From Armatimonadota bacterium (GTDB taxonomy: Bacteria > Armatimonadota > UBA5829 > DTLH01), in contig JAKPFN010000014.1 of NCBI GenBank assembly GCA_029551395.1, positions 319 to 64,318 of the forward strand: 64,000 nucleotides of DNA, in the 5' to 3' direction. How positions within the stretch are numbered: the stretch's first letter is position 1; every line of letters starts with the position of its first letter. Under the pieces are notes generated by a model. That model saw only the letters and a program-made list of their open reading frames with translations, made no database searches and was not told the origin of the DNA. This document shows, one piece after another, positions 1,536 through 63,610 of this stretch. Made by a program: the position numbers and the translations under genes.

Positions 1536-2030
1536 TTATAACCTTGCTTCTGCCATCTTGATTTTTCGCCGAACTTCCATCCAGCGCAGAAACCAGAAGA
1601 TAATCAGTGTAAGCAGGCTGTTATACAGAGATTTTATGAGCAGTACGTTCAGCGACGACCCTAAATCAGCAACAGGGTTAGCCAAAAGAAAAAGTGCTTC
1701 TCCAGAAAATGTCAGTACGCCTGCAGCCAATACAGGCACAACTGGATTATCAGAGAAGAACCGAATCGTTACCGACCCAGCTACAAACCCGATGATTGTC
1801 CGGCTTACGATAAAGCTTCCGACACCTTCTCCTACAATAGACCCATGAATAATGCCGCCAAGAAACCCTAATATTCCACCGGATAGAGGGTCAAGCGTCA
1901 GTGAGGTTGCAATCACTACAACCATCAAAAAATCCGGCCTTGCTCCTCTGATGACCATCCACGAAGGCAGATAGCCTTGCAAAGCTCCAGCCAGAATCAG
2001 CATTATTAACGGGAGAGCATACCGACGCAC
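1536..2030 (-). CDS. mreD: Rod shape-determining protein MreD
   Basis: 164-aa polytopic membrane protein immediately downstream of mreC with no intergenic gap, in the canonical mreBCD order. Confidence 0.7.
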   Translation of the reverse strand: MRRYALPLIMLILAGALQGYLPSWMVIRGARPDFLMVVVIATSLTLDPLSGGILGFLGGIIHGSIVGEGVGSFIVSRTIIGFVAGSVTIRFFSDNPVVPVLAAGVLTFSGEALFLLANPVADLGSSLNVLLIKSLYNSLLTLIIFWFLRWMEVRRKIKMAEARL

Positions 2031-2876
2031 TTACTCCACCTTCCGCAGAACAACAAATGCTTCTTCAACGCTCTCGAACCTGACGCTGGGCTTTACTTTT
2101 GCGCTTTTCATAAACCCACCGCTTTCCACCTGGACTTTTACCACACGTCCAAGCGGCAGGCCCTTTGGAGCTATTCCTCCCTGCCCGGATGTCACCACTA
2201 TATCGCCAGGCTTGACATCTGCATCTTTTGCTAAATACGTCAGATGCAGCAAGCCGGACTCTCCACCCATGCCCTGACACATTCCCATAGCTCTGGAGCG
2301 CTGTACCATTGCGCCTACACCGCTGTGGTTGTCATTGATTCCTCGTATCAGCGCGCTGGTAGGAGATACTTCGAACACCTGCCCGAGCATACCTCTATGA
2401 GTTATAACTGGCTGTCCAGGTTGAATGCCGCTTTTGCTGCCTCTGTCTATTGTAGCTGTTACAAACCATTCACTGGGGTTTCTGGATATGATTCGCACTG
2501 CCAGCAGTTTGTCAGGGGATTGCTGCTTGAGGGCTAATGCTGATCGGAGCCGCTTTGCCTCGGCTGCATCCTCTCTTAGCTGTGCAACTTCCATGTTGAG
2601 CCGCTTTACTTCTTCACGAAGCTGCCGGTTTTCCTTTTGAAGTAACTTGCGAGACCTTAGAGATTTGCTGATGCCATCAAATACCCCGCTCACACAGCTC
2701 AGCGTATTCTGAAAAGGCTTCATGACCACTCGCACGCAGTCTTCCGGGATGAACGGCTTTACTGAAAATACCTTGTCTTCATCCAGGGTGCTGTTGTGTG
2801 CTACACCTGTCAGCGTGCCAAACGCAATCAACGCAATCAGCACGGCTATCTTCCCATTCCGCAGCATGTGGAGCAT
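2031..2876 (-). CDS. mreC: Rod shape-determining protein MreC
   Basis: 281 aa with an N-terminal TM segment, a coiled coil ('LREEVKRLNMEVAQLREDAAEAKRL') and a C-terminal beta domain. It lies directly downstream of mreB. Confidence 0.85.
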   Translation of the reverse strand: MLHMLRNGKIAVLIALIAFGTLTGVAHNSTLDEDKVFSVKPFIPEDCVRVVMKPFQNTLSCVSGVFDGISKSLRSRKLLQKENRQLREEVKRLNMEVAQLREDAAEAKRLRSALALKQQSPDKLLAVRIISRNPSEWFVTATIDRGSKSGIQPGQPVITHRGMLGQVFEVSPTSALIRGINDNHSGVGAMVQRSRAMGMCQGMGGESGLLHLTYLAKDADVKPGDIVVTSGQGGIAPKGLPLGRVVKVQVESGGFMKSAKVKPSVRFESVEEAFVVLRKVE

Positions 2877-6367: not shown

Positions 6368-7162
6368 TCAAACCTCCAGGTCCTGGTAGTCATCCCGCAG
6401 CCACTTGAGCATTCGCACAAACCCGCCATTTCCGCTCAAGCGGAACTCTACCTCGTCCATCATCGCATGCATCAAACGCAGGCCTAATCCGGCTTCGTTT
6501 AGCAAACTTCCGGAATCATCCGGTGTTGGCTGGCTTATCCCTGGCCCTTCATCCATGACTTCAATGACAAATGCTTTCGGACAGCTCAAGCATCTGAGTA
6601 TAATCTTACTCTTTCCCGGCTCAGGTGAACCATGTTGAAGCGCATTGGCAAGAGCTTCTGTAAGTGCAACCCGGATTTCTGCAATGGACTGATCATCTAT
6701 CTCTGATTCCAATGCAGCATACAGGCCAAGGTCGCGAAGCGAACCAATTACTTCAGCGTCAGCGAGAATAACGGATTCAGTAATCCGCCATTCCTGCCTG
6801 CGAAGATCAGGTTTGTCAGCCTCAGGCTCATCAGACTTCAATGTGAGTACAGACAGCCCCAGCATTGTTGCCAGCCCGCTTACCTGGAGGACTCGCAATA
6901 TTCCCTCATTAGCCCCGGTAACAGCAAACCTTACTCCCAATGCTTGTGCGCGTTTACAAGCAGATGACAGAGTATGCACGGCGCTGGAATCCAGCGATTC
7001 TGCCCTGGAAAGGTCGATGGTAACTTTTGATCCTTTGTCCACAGCACGGGCAAGTACTGACCTGAACTCGCCATTGCAAATAAAATCAATACTGCCCAGC
7101 ACTCGTACAACCTGTTCTTCACCAAGTTCAAGACTGACTATCGGTTTTGGTGCGACTCCCAT
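6368..7162 (-). CDS. Fused anti-sigma-factor antagonist (STAS) / anti-sigma serine kinase (HATPase_c, RsbW-like) protein
   Basis: 264 aa. Residues 1-110 have a STAS fold ('SLDSSAVHTLSSACKRAQALGVRFAVTGA'). The C-terminal half has a GHKL ATPase N-box 'EALANALQHG' and a G-box 'DEGPGI...GLGLRLM'. There is a 14-bp gap to the upstream PP2C gene. Confidence 0.7.
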   Translation of the reverse strand: MGVAPKPIVSLELGEEQVVRVLGSIDFICNGEFRSVLARAVDKGSKVTIDLSRAESLDSSAVHTLSSACKRAQALGVRFAVTGANEGILRVLQVSGLATMLGLSVLTLKSDEPEADKPDLRRQEWRITESVILADAEVIGSLRDLGLYAALESEIDDQSIAEIRVALTEALANALQHGSPEPGKSKIILRCLSCPKAFVIEVMDEGPGISQPTPDDSGSLLNEAGLGLRLMHAMMDEVEFRLSGNGGFVRMLKWLRDDYQDLEV

Positions 7163-7176
7163 CTCCTACCACCTCG

Positions 7177-9933
7177 TTAGCTGGTTCTTGTCAGAGAATT
7201 ATGTACAGCGCTTGGCTCCAATGCAGCCGCAATTATTGCAATATCATCCCTTATTTCTTGATTAGCAAAGTTGGTAGTCTCTTCTATGACCTTTTCAACC
7301 ATTTCACGCGGGCCTACACGTGCATACTTAAAAACAATATCCTGCAGCCCTTCTATAGACAGCATATTACCGGCTTGCTTGGCGTCGATAATGCCATCCG
7401 TATAAAGCAACAGCATATCGCCAGGGTTTAGCATAAGTTCCCTCTCATCATACTCAGAATCCTCCGAGTAACCAACAGGAATACCCGTGCGGTAGAACAT
7501 TATCTGCTGCCTGCCGCCTCTGGTCAGTGCAATCGCTGGCGGATGACCTGCATTTGCATAAGTCATCCATCCTGTATCTGGATCTATCACCGCGCAAAAT
7601 ACCGTTACAACTGCCTTGGATTCAAAATAAGTCATTAGAGCGCGATTTAACAAGTCCAGCACTGCAGCAGGTGAATCTGGCCACTGGAAAAAGAACGCTC
7701 GAATCATATAACGCACCATTGCAGTATGAACGGCTGCCTGAATACCTTTGCCTGTTATATCAGCAACAACAAGAGCTACTTTTTTGTTCGGGAGAGTAAT
7801 CACATCGTAAAGGTCGCCGCCCACACGCGCTTCATCAAGAGCAGGTATATACTTGTGTCCAAACACTAACCTGCCCAACCTGTCAGGAATGACTCCTATC
7901 AGTGTGCTCTGCAGAGTCTCTGCTATCTTATACTCCCTGTGGAACAGCTTCGCATTGGCAATAACCACCGCTGCATGACTCGCAATAGACGCAAGTAAAT
8001 CGATTTCAATAGGCTTGTAATTATGAGGCTGTCTGGTCCATACAGTGATAGTGCCTATTGCTTCTTCACCTACGATTAGAGGCGCAGATATCAGTCCCCG
8101 AAGCTGTTCCCTTTTCACAAGCTCATGCAGACGAATGTCCATCTCACTGCTGATATCCGTCCGATGCACCGGCCGCTTCTCCTGATAAACCACTCCAGAC
8201 CAGCGCTCCCCAGGCTGGATTATTACTTTTTCACAAAACTCCTTGCTGAGATTGTACGCCTCTGCTATTTTCATTCTCCCATCTTTGTCTGCCAAAAATA
8301 TAGCACAGGCATCAACCTCCATTACTTCGCAGGTAGCCCGGACCAGTGAACGCAATACCTGTTTCAAATCCAGCGATGCAGATATCGATTCATCCACTTT
8401 TCTTAGCGAATCCATTACCTTTATTAGCTCTGATGTGCGGCTGTGAGTATAAGCGTTATGAACTGCAATAGCAGCGGTAGAAGCAAATGCACCTAGAAAC
8501 TCTATTTGTTCATGTAACGCCAAATCACCAGCCTGGTCAGTTGGAAAGACTGCCGCAAGCACTCCCACTGGTCTATTGCCGACTACTAATGGCAACATAA
8601 CTGCCGTAAGCCCCTCCAAATCGATATTTGGATACGCAATTGTCGCAGGCACTTCCAGAGACCTAGGAGAATCCAGAGCATGTTCTGCCAGAGGAAGCAT
8701 TGCAGCAACCACACTATCTGTATTTATCTTAGGACTGACAACAGGTTCAAGGGCACCGGTAGTATCGTCCAGGCGGAATATTACTACATATACAGCACCA
8801 AACTGCAGCTTCAATACTTCAGCTATCGACGCTGCAACTCTGCTGATATCAAGGCTTGCTGTAATTGTTCGTGAAACCTCCAGCAAGCTCTGCTGAATAC
8901 GTGTGGTGAACCTCAACGCACGCTGCTGCATCTCAAGACTCTCAGTCATCTGATTGAAACTTTCAGCCAGAGTCTGAAGTTCATCTCTAGTGTTGACATC
9001 CACACGTCGTCTAAGGTCACCAACAGTCACCGCTTCTACTGCATGAGATAACTTCCGAATAGACGAGATTATCCTGTTCCCAATGCCGTAATAAATAGCG
9101 ATTGCAGGCAATACAAGCACCAGCCAAAGTAAATACCAACCTTCTCTGGCAAATGATGGCCCTGGCACTCCTGCCGTACTTATCACTGCAACACGCCAGC
9201 CAAAATCAGGTAAAATCGTAGCCGTGCTATAATCCGATGCATTTCGAAGTTCCACTATCCGGCCTGGCACCAGCATGGAGGCTTTTTCTAAAGCTGCAGT
9301 TGAACTTTTAGATAGATTGTTCCCTGACTTACAGACCAGCTTTCCGTTCCGGTCGATTATTACCGCACTGCGGTTGCCATCCATAACTGATGAAAGCACC
9401 TGACCTATTGCATCTGCTGACACAACTGCATAAATCGTTCCAGTGCCTCCATGGTCAAATGAAACCGGCAGGCTTATGGTAAACACATTCCTCCCTGCCA
9501 GATTATATACAGATGTAACACTCTCATCAGAGCGAAGACTGGATGGAGGTAGTTCTTCCTTTTGCTGACCTGGCTGTAATTCAGGATATCTGTAGTATTT
9601 ATTATTCTCCGTATCTATCAGTCCAGCAGCCAGACATTCGTGGTTATCTGAAACTATTGATTGCAGTAAATTGGAGACCTGCTCAGGATTGTCACTACGT
9701 TGAATCTGACCTAGAGCTTTATAAAGGGAATTGACCAACTCGTCAACAAGAAACTCAACCGAGGTAGCAGCGGCACGAGTTTGTGCAGCCTGCGCACGCG
9801 CGGCAAGGATATCCGCTTGCTTGCAGTAACTTCTGATAATGACATACTGAAGCGCTGCCAGCGGGACAAACGCTGCCAAAAATACAGCCACAAGCCTGCT
9901 TGTGATGCTTTGGAGCCTTGGCCTCAATCCCAT
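7177..9933 (-). CDS. Membrane sensor PP2C-family serine phosphatase (RsbU/SpoIIE-like) with periplasmic sensor, HAMP and two GAF domains
   Basis: 918 aa with two TM segments flanking a ~250-aa extracytoplasmic domain. HAMP ('LRRRVDVNTRDELQTLAESFNQMTESLE'), two GAF-like regions, and a C-terminal PP2C ('DITGKGIQAAV', 'LLLYTDGIIDA'). Confidence 0.85.
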   Translation of the reverse strand: MGLRPRLQSITSRLVAVFLAAFVPLAALQYVIIRSYCKQADILAARAQAAQTRAAATSVEFLVDELVNSLYKALGQIQRSDNPEQVSNLLQSIVSDNHECLAAGLIDTENNKYYRYPELQPGQQKEELPPSSLRSDESVTSVYNLAGRNVFTISLPVSFDHGGTGTIYAVVSADAIGQVLSSVMDGNRSAVIIDRNGKLVCKSGNNLSKSSTAALEKASMLVPGRIVELRNASDYSTATILPDFGWRVAVISTAGVPGPSFAREGWYLLWLVLVLPAIAIYYGIGNRIISSIRKLSHAVEAVTVGDLRRRVDVNTRDELQTLAESFNQMTESLEMQQRALRFTTRIQQSLLEVSRTITASLDISRVAASIAEVLKLQFGAVYVVIFRLDDTTGALEPVVSPKINTDSVVAAMLPLAEHALDSPRSLEVPATIAYPNIDLEGLTAVMLPLVVGNRPVGVLAAVFPTDQAGDLALHEQIEFLGAFASTAAIAVHNAYTHSRTSELIKVMDSLRKVDESISASLDLKQVLRSLVRATCEVMEVDACAIFLADKDGRMKIAEAYNLSKEFCEKVIIQPGERWSGVVYQEKRPVHRTDISSEMDIRLHELVKREQLRGLISAPLIVGEEAIGTITVWTRQPHNYKPIEIDLLASIASHAAVVIANAKLFHREYKIAETLQSTLIGVIPDRLGRLVFGHKYIPALDEARVGGDLYDVITLPNKKVALVVADITGKGIQAAVHTAMVRYMIRAFFFQWPDSPAAVLDLLNRALMTYFESKAVVTVFCAVIDPDTGWMTYANAGHPPAIALTRGGRQQIMFYRTGIPVGYSEDSEYDERELMLNPGDMLLLYTDGIIDAKQAGNMLSIEGLQDIVFKYARVGPREMVEKVIEETTNFANQEIRDDIAIIAAALEPSAVHNSLTRTS

Positions 9934-24791: not shown

Positions 24792-25904
24792 TTACCCTTT
24801 ACTACTTATACTCCCTAAAACTTCTTCAAGTGCCTTGATGCACCGTTCATTATCCTGCGGTAGTCCTGTGGAGATGCGGATATGGGTCGGCCAACCAAAA
24901 ACATCTCCCGTGCGGATGATAACCCCGCGCTTGAGCAGTTCAACAAACACCTGCTTGCTGTCTTGTCCAACATCCACCCACACGAAATTAGCCTCGCTTG
25001 GCACGTATTTCAATCCAAGCCGGTCGAACTGGCTGTAGAAATAATTCTTGCCATCACTATTCATCATCCTGCTTTTGATGACCTGGTCCTGGTCTTGAAG
25101 ACTGGCAATTGCAGCCACCTGGGCAATAGAACCTACATTAAACGGCAGTCTGATACGTTCTATTAAGCTTATCAACTCCGGTCTTGCAATAGCATAACCC
25201 AGCCTCAGTCCGGCAAGGCCGTAAATCTTCGAAAAAGTCCTGAGCAGGATGACATTTCTGCCTTCCAATACCCACTTTAACCCGTTTGGATAGTCCGAGC
25301 GTTCAATATACTCATAATACGCTTCATCCAGAACAAGAATCGCACGCTCAGGCAGAGCATCAAGAATCCTCTCAGCATCTTTATGAGGCAGCATATTCCC
25401 TGTCGGATTGTTAGGGTTGGCAATAAAAACCAGCTTGGTATGCTCATTAAATTGGTCAATCAACGCATCTACGTCATAACTGAAGTCCTCATGTAGAGGA
25501 ACCATACAGCATGTGCAATTATTCGAAGTTGCCGCACCTTCATACTGGCTGAATGTCGGATCGCTTTGAATTACGCAATCGCCTTCCTCAAGGAAAACAT
25601 TGCCAATCTCTCTTATCAGCTCATCCGATCCTGCGCCAAATGAAAGGTAATCCGGCTGCACCCCAAGATGACTTGCAAGCGCATTACGCAGCGTAAAGCA
25701 ACTGCCATCTGGATACAGCGCAACATTATCGCAGGCTTTCTTCATAGCCTCGATAGCTTTCGGGCTGGCCCCAAGCGGATTTTCGTTCGAAGCCAGCTTC
25801 ACAATATCCGTCAACCCATATTCCCTCTGGACTTCCTCTATCGGTTTGCCAGGAATATAAGGCTTGAGTCTTAAAACGCATTCTTTACAAAGTCTTGGAG
25901 ACAC
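24792..25904 (-). CDS. hisC: Histidinol-phosphate aminotransferase
   Basis: Track ORF runs to 25946 with a TTG. A likelier start is the GTG at 25904, after 'gaggtg'. 'KLASNENPLG', the class-II aminotransferase fold, and the PLP lysine in 'SKIYGLAGLRLGY'. Confidence 0.85.
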   Translation of the reverse strand: MSPRLCKECVLRLKPYIPGKPIEEVQREYGLTDIVKLASNENPLGASPKAIEAMKKACDNVALYPDGSCFTLRNALASHLGVQPDYLSFGAGSDELIREIGNVFLEEGDCVIQSDPTFSQYEGAATSNNCTCCMVPLHEDFSYDVDALIDQFNEHTKLVFIANPNNPTGNMLPHKDAERILDALPERAILVLDEAYYEYIERSDYPNGLKWVLEGRNVILLRTFSKIYGLAGLRLGYAIARPELISLIERIRLPFNVGSIAQVAAIASLQDQDQVIKSRMMNSDGKNYFYSQFDRLGLKYVPSEANFVWVDVGQDSKQVFVELLKRGVIIRTGDVFGWPTHIRISTGLPQDNERCIKALEEVLGSISSKG

Positions 25905-26143
25905 GTGATTATTCACCTCATCTGTTATAAATGAAGTATAGCACAAAGGTGGGAATCAATAGAAACTCGTAAGGATTAAGTTACTATTAAGGCTGTTTGA
26001 GATACATGGATTAGTCATCCCATACTGCCGGAAACGGGGAGACGAGGAAAGAAAGTAAAAAAACAAAAATACAGAGAACAGACAAAATCTCAATCTCTTT
26101 TTTGCTTTCTCACTTTCGAGCTTTCCTCGTCTATCTCTATCCT

Positions 26144-28288
26144 TCACGCTGAATAGAATCCACTCAGATAATGTTTACAGATGAACTGCTCTACACGCCA
26201 GGTAGACTTGCCATTTTCTGTAAACTCATAAACGCCATTAGCCCGAGTCATAAAGCCGAGTTCCACCATGTAGCGCCTTGTTGCGCAGTAATCAGAACAG
26301 ACCTGGGCAATACCCTCAGTAACATCGCGCTCGCTGTAATTTTTCATCTCAGACAGGCCAAAACGCATCACTGCATCAGGCGATATATTCGCTACCGGAT
26401 TTACCTTCCGGCGCTTCTCAGCCAGTCTCATATCAACATCCGATAGCTTAGGCTCTCTGCGTCGAATTCCTCCGAAAACCGCTTTAGCTGCAATTTTCTG
26501 CAGCTTTGCATCACCATTTCGCATCAATTCCTGCAGTGCGACCTGCGAGCTTACCGTTCCCATCTCACCAAGCGCTGCTGTCGCTGCTTCGCGGACTTGC
26601 CTTTCCTTACTGTTTGTCATCTCGATTAAAAGATGCTCAGCCTGCCCTATTTGCAACCTGCCAAGTGCTGTTATAGCTACAGCCTTTTCCTGCCCTTTGC
26701 TGTTTTGTACAAGGTTTATCAACTCTTCAGCAGATGCAATATCGCCAATCTCCGATAGCGCGAAGACCGCCGCAACCCTGACTGCAGTCTCAGTATCCGA
26801 AAGAAAACCTCTTATAAGGCCCGAGTAATCACCTGCTTGCAGATGTCCCAGTACTCTAACAGCCTGGCTGCGAAGCTCTAAAGGTCCATGTTCCGCAATA
26901 GATGCAGCCTCCTTCGCTAAATCATCTAACAGCCCGCCGCCGATGTCTTCCACACGAAGCGGAGACCACTTTTCACGAGTACGCAGGTCGTTCAGAAACT
27001 GCTCCCGGCTGACTTCATACATTGTTCCTGGACAAAGCGACCTTGCTATATACTCAAGCCCCAGCAGACCGGCAGCCTGTTGCTTCACATCGTTGCTTTT
27101 CAGCATCTTCAGCAACTCATCACCAAAACGCGCTCCAGTTCTGACCAATGCCTGCAGAACCCATGAAGACTGGCTCTCCTTACTACCGTATGTTGCAATA
27201 AAACGCTCCTTCAGAATAGGAAACGCTGCATCAGCATAACACATCAATGTATTCACAAAGAGTACTGCAGGGCAGGAGTGTCTACAAGCCTGAATCATAT
27301 CCAGCAGTATTCCGGCCTTTGCCTGTTCATCCGCAGAATGCATGACGAGCCTGTCCAGAAGCATGTAAGCATCTCGTGACGCCATATTCGACATACCATC
27401 TCTAGGATCAACAATCCCGCACCTGGAAGCATACTGCACCAGGATATCCCGAGCACGCGATGCCCTTGGCTCCTGTCCAGAAAAACAGCAGTCCAGCACA
27501 ATATCTATTGCTTCACTTCCAAGGTGAGGCAGCAGAATGGCAAGATTTCCGATTGCATCTTCTGCTGTTACCATCAACTCTATCAAACGCTCTGGAGACT
27601 TTCTGAGGACTATACTTAACCTCTCCGGCGCATTTGGTTCATCGTTGAACATACGCAAAAGAACTGCAATCTCAGCTTGTACTACTTCTTTGAACCTGTC
27701 ATCCGGGATGGCAGGGATTTCTTGATGTTCGGTCATTTGCTCCATTACCTCTTTCAGTGCTTGACGCGCACGATGCAGGCGGCTCATAACCGTACCCTTG
27801 GATATCTCAAGGAACCTGGAAATCTCGTCATAGGACAACTCTTCATAATAATGCAGGACCAGGACAAGGCGGTGGGACGCTGACAGCGATGCAAGACCAT
27901 AGGACATCCGGGCATAAATAGACCGGTCTTCCATATCATCTTCAGCCGCAGCAATCTGTTCTTCTTCCAGCTCAACAAACTGATGGCTGTTGCGTCGGTA
28001 CCACATCCTGCAGACGTTGAGTGTCAGAGCCTTCAACCAGCCTGCGAACCTCTCCGGGTTGCGAAGCTGCCCCAGCTTCAGGTAGGCTTCCACAAATGAG
28101 TCATGCGCTAACTCCTCAGCATCCGGCACATTGCCGGCCATATTGAGGCATACACGATAAACCATTGTGTAGTACCGGTCCATAAGCAGGCTGAACGCCT
28201 CTTTGTCTCCCTCCAACACTGCTGAAATTAATTTACTATCGTCCACCTTATCTGCTCCTGCACAATGTTGCATTGAGCACCACTGCAT
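26144..28288 (-). CDS. ECF-type sigma factor fused to a long C-terminal extension containing HEAT/PBS-lyase-like repeats
   Basis: Track ORF 26144..28339, of which ~715 aa are used. The N-terminal ~200 aa have sigma region 2 ('DKEAFSLLMDRYYTMVYRVCLNMAG...DSFVEAYLKL') and region 4 ('LSYDEISRFLEISKGTVMSRLHRARQALK'). Residues ~560-650 carry repeats 'AVRVAAVFALSEIGD', 'AVAITALGRLQ' and 'VREAATAALGEMG'. Confidence 0.7.
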   Translation of the reverse strand: MQWCSMQHCAGADKVDDSKLISAVLEGDKEAFSLLMDRYYTMVYRVCLNMAGNVPDAEELAHDSFVEAYLKLGQLRNPERFAGWLKALTLNVCRMWYRRNSHQFVELEEEQIAAAEDDMEDRSIYARMSYGLASLSASHRLVLVLHYYEELSYDEISRFLEISKGTVMSRLHRARQALKEVMEQMTEHQEIPAIPDDRFKEVVQAEIAVLLRMFNDEPNAPERLSIVLRKSPERLIELMVTAEDAIGNLAILLPHLGSEAIDIVLDCCFSGQEPRASRARDILVQYASRCGIVDPRDGMSNMASRDAYMLLDRLVMHSADEQAKAGILLDMIQACRHSCPAVLFVNTLMCYADAAFPILKERFIATYGSKESQSSWVLQALVRTGARFGDELLKMLKSNDVKQQAAGLLGLEYIARSLCPGTMYEVSREQFLNDLRTREKWSPLRVEDIGGGLLDDLAKEAASIAEHGPLELRSQAVRVLGHLQAGDYSGLIRGFLSDTETAVRVAAVFALSEIGDIASAEELINLVQNSKGQEKAVAITALGRLQIGQAEHLLIEMTNSKERQVREAATAALGEMGTVSSQVALQELMRNGDAKLQKIAAKAVFGGIRRREPKLSDVDMRLAEKRRKVNPVANISPDAVMRFGLSEMKNYSERDVTEGIAQVCSDYCATRRYMVELGFMTRANGVYEFTENGKSTWRVEQFICKHYLSGFYSA

Positions 28289-28537
28289 TTTTGCGCTTCC
28301 AAATAGAGGATGCAGCAACTTGCCAAATATTCCATTCATCGGGGAAATTTGTTCTTTATCAGAAAAAAACTCCGCTGTCTTGAATCACTACCCATTGTAT
28401 CCTATGTCGTCCAGCTATTACAGCATCCTGGCTTATTCTGTGTGTTGTCATGCTCTACAGTGGGTATGTTAACTGTAAAGCCTGCAAAATTAAATCAACG
28501 CAGCTTCCGAAAAATGATTGTGCATCAGGAGGTCAAT

Positions 28538-43550: not shown

Positions 43551-43784
43551 TTAGCTTCCTGCTTTTTCATCGATGTAAGCAACAGCCTGCTCGACGGTCT
43601 GGATCTTCTCTGCATCCTCATCCGGTATTTCTACGTTGAACTCTTCCTCAAGTCCCATTACCAGATCCACAACGTCCAGAGAATCGGCTCCAAGATCATC
43701 TACGAATGATGCTGTCTCAGTAACCTCATCATCGCTTACTTTCAGGCGGTCTACCACAACCTTCTTCACCCGATCAAATGTTGA
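43551..43784 (-). CDS. acpP: Acyl carrier protein (copy 1)
   Basis: 78 aa from a TTG after 'aggagg'. '[19 protein letters not shown]' contains the phosphopantetheine Ser. Confidence 0.8.
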
Positions 43785-43850
43785 CAATTTTGCACCTCCT
43801 TGCAAATAACTACCACTATTTTTAGTAACGGTTGCCAATCCGATTGGCTG

Positions 43851-44087
43851 CTATGCTATTCTCCGGTCGATATAAGCTACTGCCTCGCCGACCGTTCCAA
43901 TTGTCTCCGCGTCTTCGTCCGGGATTTCAACATCAAATTCTTCCTCAAGTCCCATGACGAGTTCTACTATTTCAAGAGAATCAGCTCCGAGGTCGTCCTT
44001 GAATGACGCTCCCTCTGTAACTTCGTGTTCATCTACCTTCAGCGTAGCCAACACGACATTCTTTACTCGCTCATAAGTCGTCGGCAT
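43851..44087 (-). CDS. acpP: Acyl carrier protein (copy 2)
   Basis: 78 aa. '[19 protein letters not shown]'. About 65-70% identical to copy 1. Confidence 0.85.
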
Positions 44088-59702: not shown

Positions 59703-60667
59703 TGCGTAAAATGCTCCTGCCGGGCAATAACCCGAGGGGAGCTGAAGCATCAACCGTGTCATCTGTGCGAGAGCTTAACGAACATTACAGTAAGGGAATC
59801 GAGTTCTTCGATCAAGGCCTGTATAGAGAAGCGATATCTGAGTTTGAAATCATCATTCAGACTGTCGACTCATCTGACCCGGCCTGCAAGCTTGCGAAAT
59901 TTTACCTTGGTGAAGCGCATGCCCAGTTGGGCCTTGAACGCGCATACCGGGGCGCATCTGTCCAGGCTGAAGGAGATTTGCGCAGGGCTATCGATATAAA
60001 TCCGAAATACCCTGACCTGCATTATCACTTGGCCCGTGTGTACATCCAGAAGGGAGAGTATCAACAAGCTGTTTCCGAATTCGAGACGGCTCTAGCGCTT
60101 AATCCACGCTATGCCAGGGCACTTTTCGAACTTGGAATGCTTCGCTACAGGATGGGTGAGCGAGAGTTGGGTATGGAAATGGTCAGCCGCGCAGTAGATA
60201 TTGAGCCGGGCTACTCCAATAAGCTCTACAGAGAGGCACTTGCTGCTCATAAGACACGGCACTGGAACAAAACACTCTCCAAGCTCGAAGAACTGTCTGA
60301 GACAAATGTAGACGATATCTCTTACCACTTCCGGCTTGGTAAAGACCATTATAAACGGGGAGATTATCAATCAGCCATTGGAGATTTCGAAAGGGCGCTC
60401 AGCATACAACCAGGTTATGCGGACATCAGAAACTGGCTGGGACTTGCATATCTGGCTGCAGAGGAACCTTCCAAAGCTCTTATCGAATTCAGCCGGGCGC
60501 TTGAAATCAATCCTAACTTCATTGCTGCGCGCATAAATGCCGGTGCTGCGTTCACCAAGCTGGATTGCCTGGAAGAAGCTTCCCAATGCTACCGCCGGGT
60601 GCTTGAAATCGACCCTGACAACACAGAGGCAAGAGAAAGACTGGCAGAATTGCAGCTTAGAGGTTGA
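59702..60667 (+). CDS. Tetratricopeptide-repeat (TPR) protein
   Basis: About 8 TPR units ('YHLARVYIQKGEYQQAVSEFETALALNP' and others). The ATG overlaps the ugd stop as tgATG. Confidence 0.7.
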   Translation: MRKMLLPGNNPRGAEASTVSSVRELNEHYSKGIEFFDQGLYREAISEFEIIIQTVDSSDPACKLAKFYLGEAHAQLGLERAYRGASVQAEGDLRRAIDINPKYPDLHYHLARVYIQKGEYQQAVSEFETALALNPRYARALFELGMLRYRMGERELGMEMVSRAVDIEPGYSNKLYREALAAHKTRHWNKTLSKLEELSETNVDDISYHFRLGKDHYKRGDYQSAIGDFERALSIQPGYADIRNWLGLAYLAAEEPSKALIEFSRALEINPNFIAARINAGAAFTKLDCLEEASQCYRRVLEIDPDNTEARERLAELQLRG

Positions 60668-60716
60668 TTATCAGAATTGTAAGGCCCTCCCATAGTTCAA
60701 AGGGAGGGCCTTATTG

Positions 60717-61508
60717 TTAATCCAGCCTTAATGTCAGGCACTTTGACGAACCACCGGCTTTAATAAACTCGGACATATCAACTGGAACGCATTTTATACC
60801 CCGCTCAGCCAGCGTTGCACTTAACCTGTCGCTCGGCCTATGCAGCACGAACATATCATCAATTACAACCGTATTGCAGGCAAACCGGACTGCTTCTTCC
60901 TCAGTTACCTCAACCGCATCAGGGAACCGATTACGAAGCAGCCTGAGAGAGTAATCATCAAACGCTCCGGGATAATAAAGAGCAGAGTCCTTCAGCCTGC
61001 AAAGGCACGTATCCAGATGATAAAACCGTTCATCTTTCAACCTGAGCGGCAGGACTGCCTCTTCCATAAGCTGCGAGACTACTGCCAGTGCCTGCGGATC
61101 GCTTCTGAAGTAGTAGCCGCCAAACCAGGTGTCCCCTATCTTCAACAAATCGCCGGCGCCTTCAAAAAACAGCCCTTTTGGCAGGACTTCGACACGGTAT
61201 CCGTGCTCTCTGAACCATTTCTCGAAGAATTCAGATTCGCCCTGCCTCTCAGGATGCCTGAAGTTGGATGGAATAAACAAGTCACCCTTCACGACTCCTG
61301 CATTGGCTGTGAAGACCATATCGGGAAGACCTTCCTGTGGTTCAATTAGCTCGACCTGCACTCCCGGTATCGATGCAAGTGTATCATGCAGGTCCTGCCA
61401 CTGTTTACTGGCAAGGTCTTTGTCCACCGGCTGGCCCTGAGCCATCCATGGGTTTATCTGATACATAACTCCGTAGTAAGTAGGAGGACACATCAGGAAG
61501 CGCGCCAC
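60717..61508 (-). CDS. Guanidino-group-modifying enzyme superfamily protein (amidinotransferase / DDAH / arginine dihydrolase-like)
   Basis: 263 aa with a C-terminal catalytic Cys in 'GGSSKCLTL'. The pentein beta/alpha-propeller fold is suggested by 'FTANAGVV' and 'LDTCLC'. Overlaps the upstream gene by 16 bp. Confidence 0.6.
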   Translation of the reverse strand: MARFLMCPPTYYGVMYQINPWMAQGQPVDKDLASKQWQDLHDTLASIPGVQVELIEPQEGLPDMVFTANAGVVKGDLFIPSNFRHPERQGESEFFEKWFREHGYRVEVLPKGLFFEGAGDLLKIGDTWFGGYYFRSDPQALAVVSQLMEEAVLPLRLKDERFYHLDTCLCRLKDSALYYPGAFDDYSLRLLRNRFPDAVEVTEEEAVRFACNTVVIDDMFVLHRPSDRLSATLAERGIKCVPVDMSEFIKAGGSSKCLTLRLD

Positions 61509-62722
61509 GGGCCTGCCTCCTTCAGTTCATCTGCAAGCTCACTCATAAAGAGCGCAGCATCGGTTACAACACCGACTGCCTGGTGCGTACCCCGGTCAGC
61601 CAGCTTGGTTACTACGGCAGTGTTGATATCGACGCACACCACTTCCACTGAAGCAGGCAGCAGGTTGCCGGTTGCTACGGAGTGAAGCGTTGTGGCAACC
61701 ATCAGAGCCATGCCAACCTCAGAAAGCTGGGCACGCATCGCGTCCTGTGCCTCCATAACATCCGTAATGACATCGGGAAGCGGGCCGTCATCTCGGATAG
61801 ACCCGGCCAGAACATACGAAACACCAGCCTTGACAGCTTCATACATAATCCCTTTGGTCAGCACGCCTTGTTTGACAGCCTCAGCTATGCTTCCAACCCG
61901 GCGGATCTCATTGATTGCCCTCAAGTGATTCTCATGCCCGTGTGGAGCCGGTTTACCTTCTTCAATGTAAACTCCAAGAGCCGTCCCATACAGCGCGGAC
62001 TCGATATCGTGGGTCGCAAGCGCATTCCCGGCGAAGATGACATCGATCCATCCATCCCGGATCATCCTTGCGACTGCTTCACCTGCACCAGCATGAACAA
62101 TTGCAGGGCCGCCAACAAGTAAAACCTTCTTGCCAGCTTTCTTCGTATCCCTGATTTGCCGGGCTACTTCGGCAACCATCAACGCTTTAGGCTTTTCACT
62201 TGAGACAGTGCTGGTCATGAACTCAAATGTCCCAACACTCTCGCGCCGTTCCGGAGTCTCTACCTTGATCCCATCATGTCCAACTACCACCATCTGTCCA
62301 GCTCTGACATCGTTCATAGGGGTAGTCCGGGCCTGACCGTTCTCAATCACTATGCCGCAGTCCATCTCTACCCGGTCAACGGGTATCCACTTGCCGGAAA
62401 CCTTCACGCTTGTCGGCAGGTTGGTTGTGCAGTAGAAATGCTCCGGGAAAACTCCATCCTTAGGGGCTGGCACAAGCTCAGCATCCTGTTGCTCCAGCCG
62501 ATTTGCCCCTTCCTGTTCGATGTATGCCAGCACTGCATTCAGCTTATCATCATTTGGAGCTTGTATGCGGATGAGTGCGCGGCTCTGATCATCGCGAGTC
62601 TTACCGACGGTCATCTCTAATATCTCAAACTCGCCACCTTGAGCCAGGATGCTGTCCAACACCCGTGGCAGGCTCAATGAATCAATAATATGTCCTTTTA
62701 GTTCAACAAGTTCAGACGGCAT
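61493..62722 (-). CDS. LOR/SDH-conserved-region (TIGR00300-like) protein, homologous to archaeal-type ornithine cyclodeaminase
   Basis: 409 aa with a Rossmann-like core 'KKVLLVGGPAIVHAGAGEAVARMIRDGWIDVIFAGNALATHD'. Its size and motifs fit the conserved family that includes the M. jannaschii ornithine cyclodeaminase and the C-terminal domain of cyanobacterial ArgZ/AgrE. Confidence 0.5.
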   Translation of the reverse strand: MPSELVELKGHIIDSLSLPRVLDSILAQGGEFEILEMTVGKTRDDQSRALIRIQAPNDDKLNAVLAYIEQEGANRLEQQDAELVPAPKDGVFPEHFYCTTNLPTSVKVSGKWIPVDRVEMDCGIVIENGQARTTPMNDVRAGQMVVVGHDGIKVETPERRESVGTFEFMTSTVSSEKPKALMVAEVARQIRDTKKAGKKVLLVGGPAIVHAGAGEAVARMIRDGWIDVIFAGNALATHDIESALYGTALGVYIEEGKPAPHGHENHLRAINEIRRVGSIAEAVKQGVLTKGIMYEAVKAGVSYVLAGSIRDDGPLPDVITDVMEAQDAMRAQLSEVGMALMVATTLHSVATGNLLPASVEVVCVDINTAVVTKLADRGTHQAVGVVTDAALFMSELADELKEAGPWRAS

Positions 62723-62779
62723 TGTCTACCTCCAGATACTTATCCGTTACCAATACGGTTACTTTAACGAGATTATCGC

Positions 62780-62803
62780 CCTGTACATCGTTTCCTGTAC
62801 AGG
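62780..62803. promoter_or_regulatory. Palindromic operator-like site in a divergent promoter region
   Basis: CCTGTACA-tcgtttcc-TGTACAGG. Each half contains a TGTACA palindrome. It lies ~60-80 bp upstream of the 62722 start and ~190 bp upstream of the 62996 start. Confidence 0.3.
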
Positions 62804-62995
62804 TTCACTCGCTTTCTCTATTTCTTTAGTTTAACAGCCAGTCTTTACGTTCCTCTACATTGTTATAACTGTTTTAAATCACGTTGTCCAATAATCAGCG
62901 ACAATTGAACTAAGCAGTCATATTAACTGACATCGATGGGTAACATACATAAGACTAAAATGAGCACATCAATGGATTGATGGAGGTATATCTTA

Positions 62996-63610
62996 ATGGC
63001 AGACAAGGCACTTGTTATCATAGATGTCCAAAAGTGTTTCCTACCAGGCGGACCGCTTGCAGTAGAAGAAGGAGACAAGGTTGTTCCTGTACTGAATGAA
63101 TATATTAAGATATTCAAAAACCGAGGACTTCCAATTTTCGCAACCAGAGACTGGCATCCACCTGTCACAAAACACTTCAAGGAATACGGCGGACTTTGGC
63201 CGCCTCACTGCATCAGAGACACTCCCGGTGCGGAATTTGCGCCTGGTCTGGAACTACCGGAAGATACGGAAATCATATCTGCAGGTGTTGGCCCTGAGGA
63301 AGAAGGTTATTCCTCTTTTGAAGGCGCCAACGAAGATGGCGAAAGCTTCGAAGAAGTACTGCGGTCCCAGGGAATTTTGCATCTTTATGTCGGTGGAATA
63401 GCAACAGATTACTGCGTAAAAGAAACAACCCTGGATGCTCTACGGAAAGGATTCAAGGCGACACTGCTTCAAGATGCCGTAAAGGCCGTAAACTTGAAGC
63501 CTGGAGATGACAAAAGGGCAATAGACGATATGGTAGAAGCCGGAGCTAAAGTATCTGAGCTGGAAGAGGTAAGAAAAGAACTGGAATCCACTGTCAGGAC
63601 GCAGATTTAA
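62996..63610 (+). CDS. pncA: Isochorismatase-family cysteine hydrolase (nicotinamidase/pyrazinamidase-like)
   Basis: 204 aa. 'ALVIIDVQKCF', 'TRDWHPP', the catalytic Cys in 'IATDYCVKET', and a conserved Lys. SD 'ggaggt'. Confidence 0.75.
   Translation: MADKALVIIDVQKCFLPGGPLAVEEGDKVVPVLNEYIKIFKNRGLPIFATRDWHPPVTKHFKEYGGLWPPHCIRDTPGAEFAPGLELPEDTEIISAGVGPEEEGYSSFEGANEDGESFEEVLRSQGILHLYVGGIATDYCVKETTLDALRKGFKATLLQDAVKAVNLKPGDDKRAIDDMVEAGAKVSELEEVRKELESTVRTQI

Follow-up and report, generated by a model that had tools for sequence, protein, structure and literature searches.

Can a complete route from arginine to proline be encoded by two separate, overlapping genes in a bacterium that is not a cyanobacterium? 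The question is raised by a gene pair in a 64,000-nucleotide stretch of contig JAKPFN010000014.1 (assembly GCA_029551395.1) from an Armatimonadota bacterium, the whole of which is referred to here as the window. On the minus strand, a gene with an ATG start encoding a 409-aa protein (61493..62722) is followed by a gene with a GTG start encoding a 263-aa protein of the pentein fold (60717..61508), and the two share 16 nt (61493..61508). A sequence-only reading of this DNA had proposed that the first gene encodes an ornithine cyclodeaminase (OCD) of the archaeal type and the second an arginine dihydrolase-like enzyme, two activities that are fused in the opposite order in the cyanobacterial proteins ArgZ and AgrE; both open reading frames (ORFs), their strand, the overlap, and the reversed order are confirmed on the sequence. 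Collectively, homology, residue conservation, and gene order suggest, with a probability that we put at roughly three in four, that the pair constitutes a self-contained two-gene operon that would convert arginine to ornithine and ornithine to proline. Both types of enzyme are already known; what is new is the unfused, reverse-order, translationally coupled operon form, which is widespread but uncharacterized.

Family membership and active sites of the two proteins

The 409-aa protein scores 518.9 bits on NCBIfam TIGR00300 (ornithine cyclodeaminase, nickel-pincer nucleotide-dependent), an equivalog-level model with a curated cutoff of 410.8, in a match that runs from residue 3 to 402 and covers profile positions 3–406 of 407. 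Its Pfam domains are PF04455 (residues 4–101), PF21571 (103–183), and the Rossmann-like PF21570 (185–396); the scan returned no alanine-dehydrogenase or saccharopine-dehydrogenase catalytic domain, so that the protein does not prove to be a different Rossmann enzyme, an outcome against which the sequence-only reading had asked that it be checked. Among PDB structures, it matches the Methanococcus maripaludis enzyme (3C2Q) with 355 bits and the C-terminal half of AgrE (6LRF) with 345 bits. Across 50 family members (archaeal, fused, and paired), 61 positions are invariant, and the protein keeps all 61, among them H210, H238, D239, H263, H266, R310, D311, D312, and H347. Its nearest relatives are encoded in Armatimonadota metagenome-assembled genomes (MAGs; 78–79% identity), followed at about 50% by proteins of methanogens, Sumerlaeota, and Asgard archaea, consistent with the noncyanobacterial host that had been proposed. 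We infer that the protein is an OCD of the TIGR00300 (archaeal/ArgZ C-terminal) type, predicted to convert ornithine to proline and NH3. Members of the OCD family have been reported to work with a nickel-pincer adenine dinucleotide (NPAD) that is bound non-covalently, instead of with plain NAD (Desguin 2025, as cited in PMC13524815).

Few members of this family have been assayed, and it is old and diverse, with pairwise identities among the paired OCDs reaching down to 34%. The 409-aa enzyme might thus act on another diamino acid, turning for instance lysine into pipecolate, or be mainly biosynthetic, with the pentein supplying a different substrate. We consider this very improbable, given a score over the equivalog-level cutoff, the retention of all 61 invariant positions common with the M. 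maripaludis and AgrE enzymes, and a conserved partner that is homologous to an ornithine-producing enzyme.

That partner, the 263-aa protein, passes the Pfam model PF19420 (pentein/DDAH-type, “DDAH_eukar”; 49.8 vs. a gathering score of 23) and can be aligned over its whole length with the dihydrolase domains of AgrE (6LRF, 248 bits, 48.8% identity) and ArgZ (6JV0, 241 bits, 47.7%), whereas its scores against DDAH structures are 47.6 bits for the Pseudomonas aeruginosa enzyme and 25.9 bits for human DDAH1. Its active-site residues are N69, E116, D120, R135, H164, D166, and C257, the last lying within the C-terminal ...GGSSKCLTLRLD. Residues N71, E118, H168, and C264 of AgrE correspond to N69, E116, H164, and C257 of the window protein, a set that is invariant in an alignment of nine sequences (seven paired penteins and two fused enzymes), and the window protein retains all positions that do not vary in ArgZ/AgrE. 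The sites of the catalytic Cys and Asn are taken from PDB mutants, namely the Cys-to-Ala form of AgrE (6LRH) and the Asn-to-Ser form of ArgZ (6JUZ), and the window pentein carries Cys and Asn at these sites; the exact roles of Glu118, His168, and Asn71 of AgrE follow the literature. The expectation of a pentein with a C-terminal catalytic Cys is therefore upheld, and the Cys/His/Glu triad, whose possible absence had been raised as a further check, is present. The 263-aa pentein is accordingly described here as a predicted stand-alone arginine dihydrolase.

The curated family models are less decisive. The pentein matches the N-terminal half of the ArgZ model NF052231 with 286.8 bits (profile positions 6–269) and scores 283.9 bits on NF052232 (arginine dihydrolase domain), short of its cutoff of 450; on NF045659 (“dimethylargininase” of the Mycobacterium tuberculosis type) it scores 274.7 bits, short of 300, and on the other two DDAH models, NF045658 and NF045660, 48.3 vs. 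450 and 81.3 vs. 340. None of the NCBIfam curated models scored thus claims it. The other paired penteins tested are also under the NF052232 cutoff (279–301 bits vs. 450), and the penteins of the relatives all score, like that of the window, between the dihydrolase and M. tuberculosis-type DDAH models. The PF19420 match, the 274.7 bits on NF045659, and most database names, including those that JGI gives to many homologues, agree with the view that the protein is a DDAH or a related single-step hydrolase, whose link to the OCD would not come from a shared arginine–ornithine–proline pathway. Yet it reaches none of the three DDAH cutoffs and is far closer to AgrE than to either DDAH structure.

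A second view is that the pentein is an arginine deiminase that halts at citrulline, or an amidinotransferase that passes the amidino group on to an acceptor and releases ornithine for removal by the OCD. The pentein superfamily has one common Cys–His–acid catalytic core, Sll1336 (ArgZ) was itself long annotated in this way (PMC2242806), and an amidinotransferase would also give ornithine, making the gene pairing compatible with it. However, the identity to proven dihydrolase domains is 48% over the full length, and all invariants of ArgZ/AgrE are kept, among them the Asn that was replaced in 6JUZ. Nor do genes related to an acceptor or of the carbamate/OTC type recur in the neighborhood of the pair. 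We therefore regard a deiminase or amidinotransferase as improbable, and an arginine dihydrolase as the preferred assignment.

Conservation and co-inheritance of the pair

The order OCD then pentein is found in all eight close relatives examined, with pentein identities from 64% down to 53%, and these include a cultured planctomycete with a complete genome, Aquisphaera giovannonii (CP042997.1). Five homologues in the same range (64–53%) were found from the pentein side, and each is directly preceded, in the same orientation, by an OCD of the TIGR00300 type. The OCDs paired with a pentein in the relatives all exceed the TIGR00300 cutoff, and the junctions are of the same kind as in the window, with 4-nt, 16-nt, or 1-nt overlaps or short gaps. 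When metagenomes were scanned with the pentein alignment, this was extended to 80 more distant loci (46–52% identity), 71 of them informative. The pentein is linked to an OCD-family sequence at 62 of the 71 (87%): an OCD lies directly upstream at 55, a mini-gene of 83–85 aa consisting only of PF04455, which is the first (N-terminal) OCD domain, lies 5′ of the pentein at six, and one encodes a fused, ArgZ-type protein of 715 aa. The remaining nine lack any OCD-family sequence. In addition, the distance matrices of OCD and pentein are congruent across the 51 taxa in which both genes are complete (Mantel r = 0.884, with 0 of 4999 permutations as high), which indicates long-term co-inheritance of the two as a unit. 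The pair is thus a widespread conserved operon and not a peculiarity of the window genome. An OCD-anchored scan had given pairing at only 2 of 48 loci, those of the two closest MAGs, and with it the impression that pairing is rare; this reflected a sampling bias toward archaeal OCDs and was overturned by the pentein-side searches. When 1056 neighboring ORFs from about 130 loci were clustered, no other family recurred beside the pair across lineages, and the recurrent neighbor families (PolX, FtsZ, and ThiG, for example) represent lineage-specific synteny.

The consistency of the pairing bears on the DDAH view introduced above. The product of a DDAH, citrulline, would be unusable by the neighboring OCD, yet the two genes are paired at 87% of the informative loci and have evolved together. 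Moreover, the DDAH label of the M. tuberculosis-type family is based on homology, as is that of its member Rv2323c, a protein that is induced by arginine and needed for growth on arginine in an organism that turns arginine into ornithine and proline without arginase (PMC4569260). These genetics tie Rv2323c to arginine use and provide independent support for the idea that stand-alone members of the pentein family produce ornithine. We consider it unlikely that the window protein is a DDAH.

The favored model is therefore one in which the pentein would hydrolyze the guanidino group of L-arginine twice, yielding L-ornithine, two NH3, and CO2 in the manner of the ArgZ/AgrE N-terminal domain, with catalysis by the Cys257/His164/Glu116 set together with Asn69. 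The OCD would then cyclize ornithine to L-proline and NH3, as do methanogen OCD and the ArgZ/AgrE C-terminal domain, probably with non-covalently bound NPAD made by genes elsewhere in the genome, and the gene overlap and internal ribosome-binding site would couple the translation of both proteins. The chemistry is proposed because of the homology to ArgZ/AgrE and to methanogen OCD, the pathway logic because the gene pair is conserved and coupled, and the NPAD step because the OCD belongs to the TIGR00300 family. The pathway presumably runs from arginine toward proline, its role might be nitrogen release or proline supply, and the two enzymes might form a complex. The unfused route in a noncyanobacterium envisaged by the sequence-only reading is thereby supported at the level of prediction, and it is extended to a widespread operon whose OCD family is reported to depend on NPAD.

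Three observations weigh against this model. First, the pentein lies below the cutoffs of both NF052232 and NF045659 with nearly equal scores, and its substrate is not settled by sequence alone. Second, no LarB/C/E-type genes are present in the annotated parts of the 64-kb window (Pfam labels, covering most of it), and none recur near the pair. Third, two OCDs inside the paired clade, those of loci L003 (9485..12164) and L004 (9442..12098), have no pentein within 8 kb. The latter OCDs are 68–70% identical to that of the window, and defense-type genes lie directly downstream, in the usual place of the pentein: a TIR-domain CAP12/Pycsar-like effector and AbiGi in L003, an Armatimonadota MAG, and NOV_C and an AAA_15/AbiEii-like ATPase in L004, an unclassified bacterial MAG. 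Both loci may have lost their pentein or had it displaced.

Several further arrangements were seen at individual loci. The PF04455-only genes (L065 235..486, L115 3232..3489, L117, L125 559..810, L126 1049..1306, and L138) have no OCD catalytic part nearby, which suggests that this domain is separable and may be functionally tied to the pentein. At L001 (~7100..7967), L002 (~1600..2458), and L056 (3889..4782), a co-directional gene for a xylose-isomerase-like TIM-barrel protein (PF01261 AP_endonuc_2, with a weak iolE-like match) ends about 30 nt before the OCD start; the gene is missing from the window, and the closest relatives may have a three-gene operon of PF01261 gene, OCD, and pentein. 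In Aquisphaera giovannonii (L058, 6914..8748 in CP042997.1), genes for a PF04199 cyclase (kynurenine-formamidase-like) and an Aminotran_5/KYNU_C (kynureninase-like) protein follow the pair directly and co-directionally, which hints at a larger amino-acid catabolic cluster. At L092 (3473..5227), a pentein and a KsgA/RsmA-type rRNA adenine dimethylase domain (PF00398) lie in one open frame of 584 aa, which may be an assembly or ORF-calling read-through, not a real fusion. Finally, at about 25 methanogen loci (Methanomicrobia; e.g., L015 7275..7880 and L033 6265..7272), a conserved gene for a MobA-like nucleotidyltransferase (PF12804) and an ORF with homology to the class I/II aminotransferase gene of the window (24792..25946; PF00155) lie 5′ of the OCD gene. 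This arrangement could reflect synteny within the lineage, or the genes could be functionally linked to the OCD or to its dinucleotide cofactor.

Boundaries of the two-gene unit and its surroundings

The junction between the two genes (61493..61520, minus strand) reads ...GAAGGAGGCAGGCCCGTGGCGCGCTTCCTGATG... on the coding strand. A Shine–Dalgarno sequence, GGAGG (61516..61520), sits 7 nt 5′ of the pentein GTG (61506..61508), and the OCD TGA occupies 61493..61495. Although an alternative pentein ATG at 61493 shares bases with this stop codon (TGATG), the homologue N-termini MKSARFLMCPP, MRRFLMCPP, and MTNFLMCPP line up with MARFLMCPP, the start of the GTG-initiated product, and the GTG start with the 16-nt overlap is therefore the better gene model. 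The overlap and the internal ribosome-binding site fit translational coupling of OCD and pentein. A programmed frameshift leading to a fused protein was considered and rejected by inspection: the overlap, GGC CCG TGG CGC GCT TCC TGA, contains no slippery heptamer, and the relatives use ordinary 4-nt ATGA overlaps.

On the 3′ side, the 49-nt gap between the pentein gene and a convergent TPR gene contains a G+C-rich hairpin of 12 bp, UAAGGCCCUCCC-N10-GGGAGGGCCUUA (60680..60713), which begins 4 nt 3′ of the pentein stop codon. Its minimum free energy is −25.8 kcal/mol (z = −5.5), and 0 of 200 shuffled sequences are as stable; it is likely to be a bidirectional terminator that closes the two-gene unit. 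On the 5′ side, the OCD gene is separated from a divergent gene by an intergenic region of 273 nt. With these two borders, the unit has clear boundaries. An Rfam search of 60500..63200 (E ≤ 1) identified no known RNA element in the leader or the intergenic region.

The divergent intergenic region contains a perfect 8-nt inverted repeat, CCTGTACA-N8-TGTACAGG (62780..62803), 58–81 nt 5′ of the OCD start codon, which the sequence-only reading had described as a palindromic, operator-like site. The palindrome is real and unique, the pattern TGTACA-N6-10-TGTACA occurring once in the 64 kb against an expectation of 0.01 by chance. It overlaps, as an operator would, the −35 hexamer and spacer of a σ70-like promoter match on the minus strand (TGTACA-18-GATAAT, 62772..62801, 9 of 12 consensus positions); however, the number of σ70-like matches in the region equals that expected from shuffled sequence, so the promoter scan is no better than chance. 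The palindrome was not found 5′ of the pair in any relative (in L001 and L002 another gene abuts the OCD), and it is absent from all other loci checked except an identical contig. A conserved operator is thus rejected for these loci, and this absence leaves the proposed operator role unsupported. An NtcA-type site was also dismissed by inspection, the palindrome not fitting the GTA-N8-TAC spacing.

The divergent gene (62996..63610, plus strand) encodes a member of the isochorismatase family close to the nicotinamidase PncA (NF008623, 155.9 bits vs. a cutoff of 174). Homologues lie near the pair in L002 (801..1397) and L056 (2884..3480) and not in L001. Nicotinamidase feeds nicotinate salvage toward nicotinic acid adenine dinucleotide, the precursor of nickel-pincer cofactors, and the association of this gene with the OCD–pentein pair could be functional or coincidental.

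The remainder of the window is ordinary chromosome, with genes for fatty-acid synthesis, the shikimate pathway, MreBCD, penicillin-binding proteins, and GroES. The fatty-acid cluster (plsX, fabH, fabD, fabG, and fabF) has two tandem acyl-carrier-protein genes (PF00550 twice; ~43551..44087, minus strand). A gene at 26144..28339 (minus strand) encodes a protein of about 700 aa that combines σ70 regions 2 and 4 with HEAT repeats and DUF2087, an unusual σ-factor architecture.

Implications and relation to known systems

That a fusion protein has a split counterpart is no surprise; it is the consistent pairing that gives a concrete functional assignment for a protein family that is large and poorly named. 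For annotation, the operon offers a functional setting in which to read thousands of stand-alone penteins, which lack a name in any curated model and go by DDAH or amidinotransferase; such proteins are probably arginine dihydrolases. For physiology, Armatimonadota, Planctomycetota, and many soil bacteria not yet cultured would gain a way to degrade arginine that needs no arginase and liberates its three extra nitrogens in full; through its nickel-pincer cofactor, the pathway would also imply a possible need for nickel that has gone unrecognized. More tentatively, the ArgZ/AgrE pathway may commonly take the unfused form of an OCD–pentein operon in Armatimonadota, Planctomycetota, and many soil bacteria, a generalization that we offer as a possibility and think rather doubtful as yet. 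If it is true, the large bacterial family whose members carry the labels DDAH, amidinotransferase, or arginine-deiminase-related would consist of arginine dihydrolases, perhaps with Rv2323c among them; the arginine catabolism of these environmental bacteria might carry a hidden, unrecognized requirement for nickel through the NPAD cofactor, met by unlinked genes; and the separable PF04455 domain would dock both enzymes into a non-covalent, ArgZ-like complex.

Among characterized proteins, the archaeal OCD of M. maripaludis (MMP1218, PDB 3C2Q), which is reported to be NPAD-dependent, belongs to the same family as the window OCD at the equivalog level; the two are 52% identical over the catalytic core, and the family-invariant residues are all present in the window protein. 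They differ in context. A pentein is adjacent in 0 of about 40 archaeal OCD loci examined, whereas the window OCD gene overlaps a pentein gene, and the archaeal enzyme is thought to serve proline biosynthesis, whereas that of the window is coupled to a predicted ornithine-producing enzyme. On the pentein side, Rv2323c (annotated DDAH; NF045659) is likewise a stand-alone protein, of a size similar to the window pentein, which nevertheless scores under the cutoff of this model. Rv2323c sits in the roc cluster with genes for ornithine aminotransferase and a transporter and without a TIGR00300 OCD, whereas the window pentein is paired with one. In Coxiella burnetii, an unfused arginine-to-proline route has been predicted from the unlinked genes CBU_0279 and CBU_1727 (2026 preprint, PMC13252051). 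The idea, a stand-alone homologue of the ArgZ N-domain and a separate OCD, is the same as for the window pair, but the genes of the window overlap within a single operon, and this operon is conserved across phyla. No description of a conserved OCD–pentein operon was found in the literature searched; the NPAD paper, which lies outside that literature, may cover it.

The closest parallel is with the bifunctional arginine dihydrolase/ornithine cyclodeaminases ArgZ (Sll1336, Synechocystis) and AgrE (Alr4995, Anabaena), both modules of which are homologous to the window pair over their full length. The window pentein is 48–49% identical to the N-domains, with the catalytic Asn, Glu, His, and Cys conserved, and the window OCD shares about 45% identity with the C-terminal half, the domains PF04455, PF21571, and PF21570 included. 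The predicted overall reaction is also the same, arginine yielding proline, three NH3, and CO2. In contrast, ArgZ and AgrE are cyanobacterial and are single chains of about 700 aa in which the pentein domain precedes the OCD, whereas the window, from a noncyanobacterium, has two ORFs, OCD and then pentein. On the model of the bifunctional family (NF052231, cutoff 1025), the window OCD scores 414 bits (profile positions 285–693) and the pentein 287 bits; the window pair would act as ArgZ/AgrE does, yet it falls outside the bifunctional family. Moreover, the reverse order of the modules means that neither a simple split nor the loss of a stop codon can interconvert the two forms. In quick neighbor-joining trees (distance-based, midpoint-rooted, without support values, and with deep branching that is only indicative), the OCD half of the fused enzyme falls outside the clade of the window OCD, nearest to archaeal OCDs (~48% identity), whereas its pentein half is nearest to the paired bacterial penteins (50–53%). 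Thus, both the opposite order of the modules and the separate grouping of the fused OCD half argue against a simple split or join as the relation between the fused and the unfused form.

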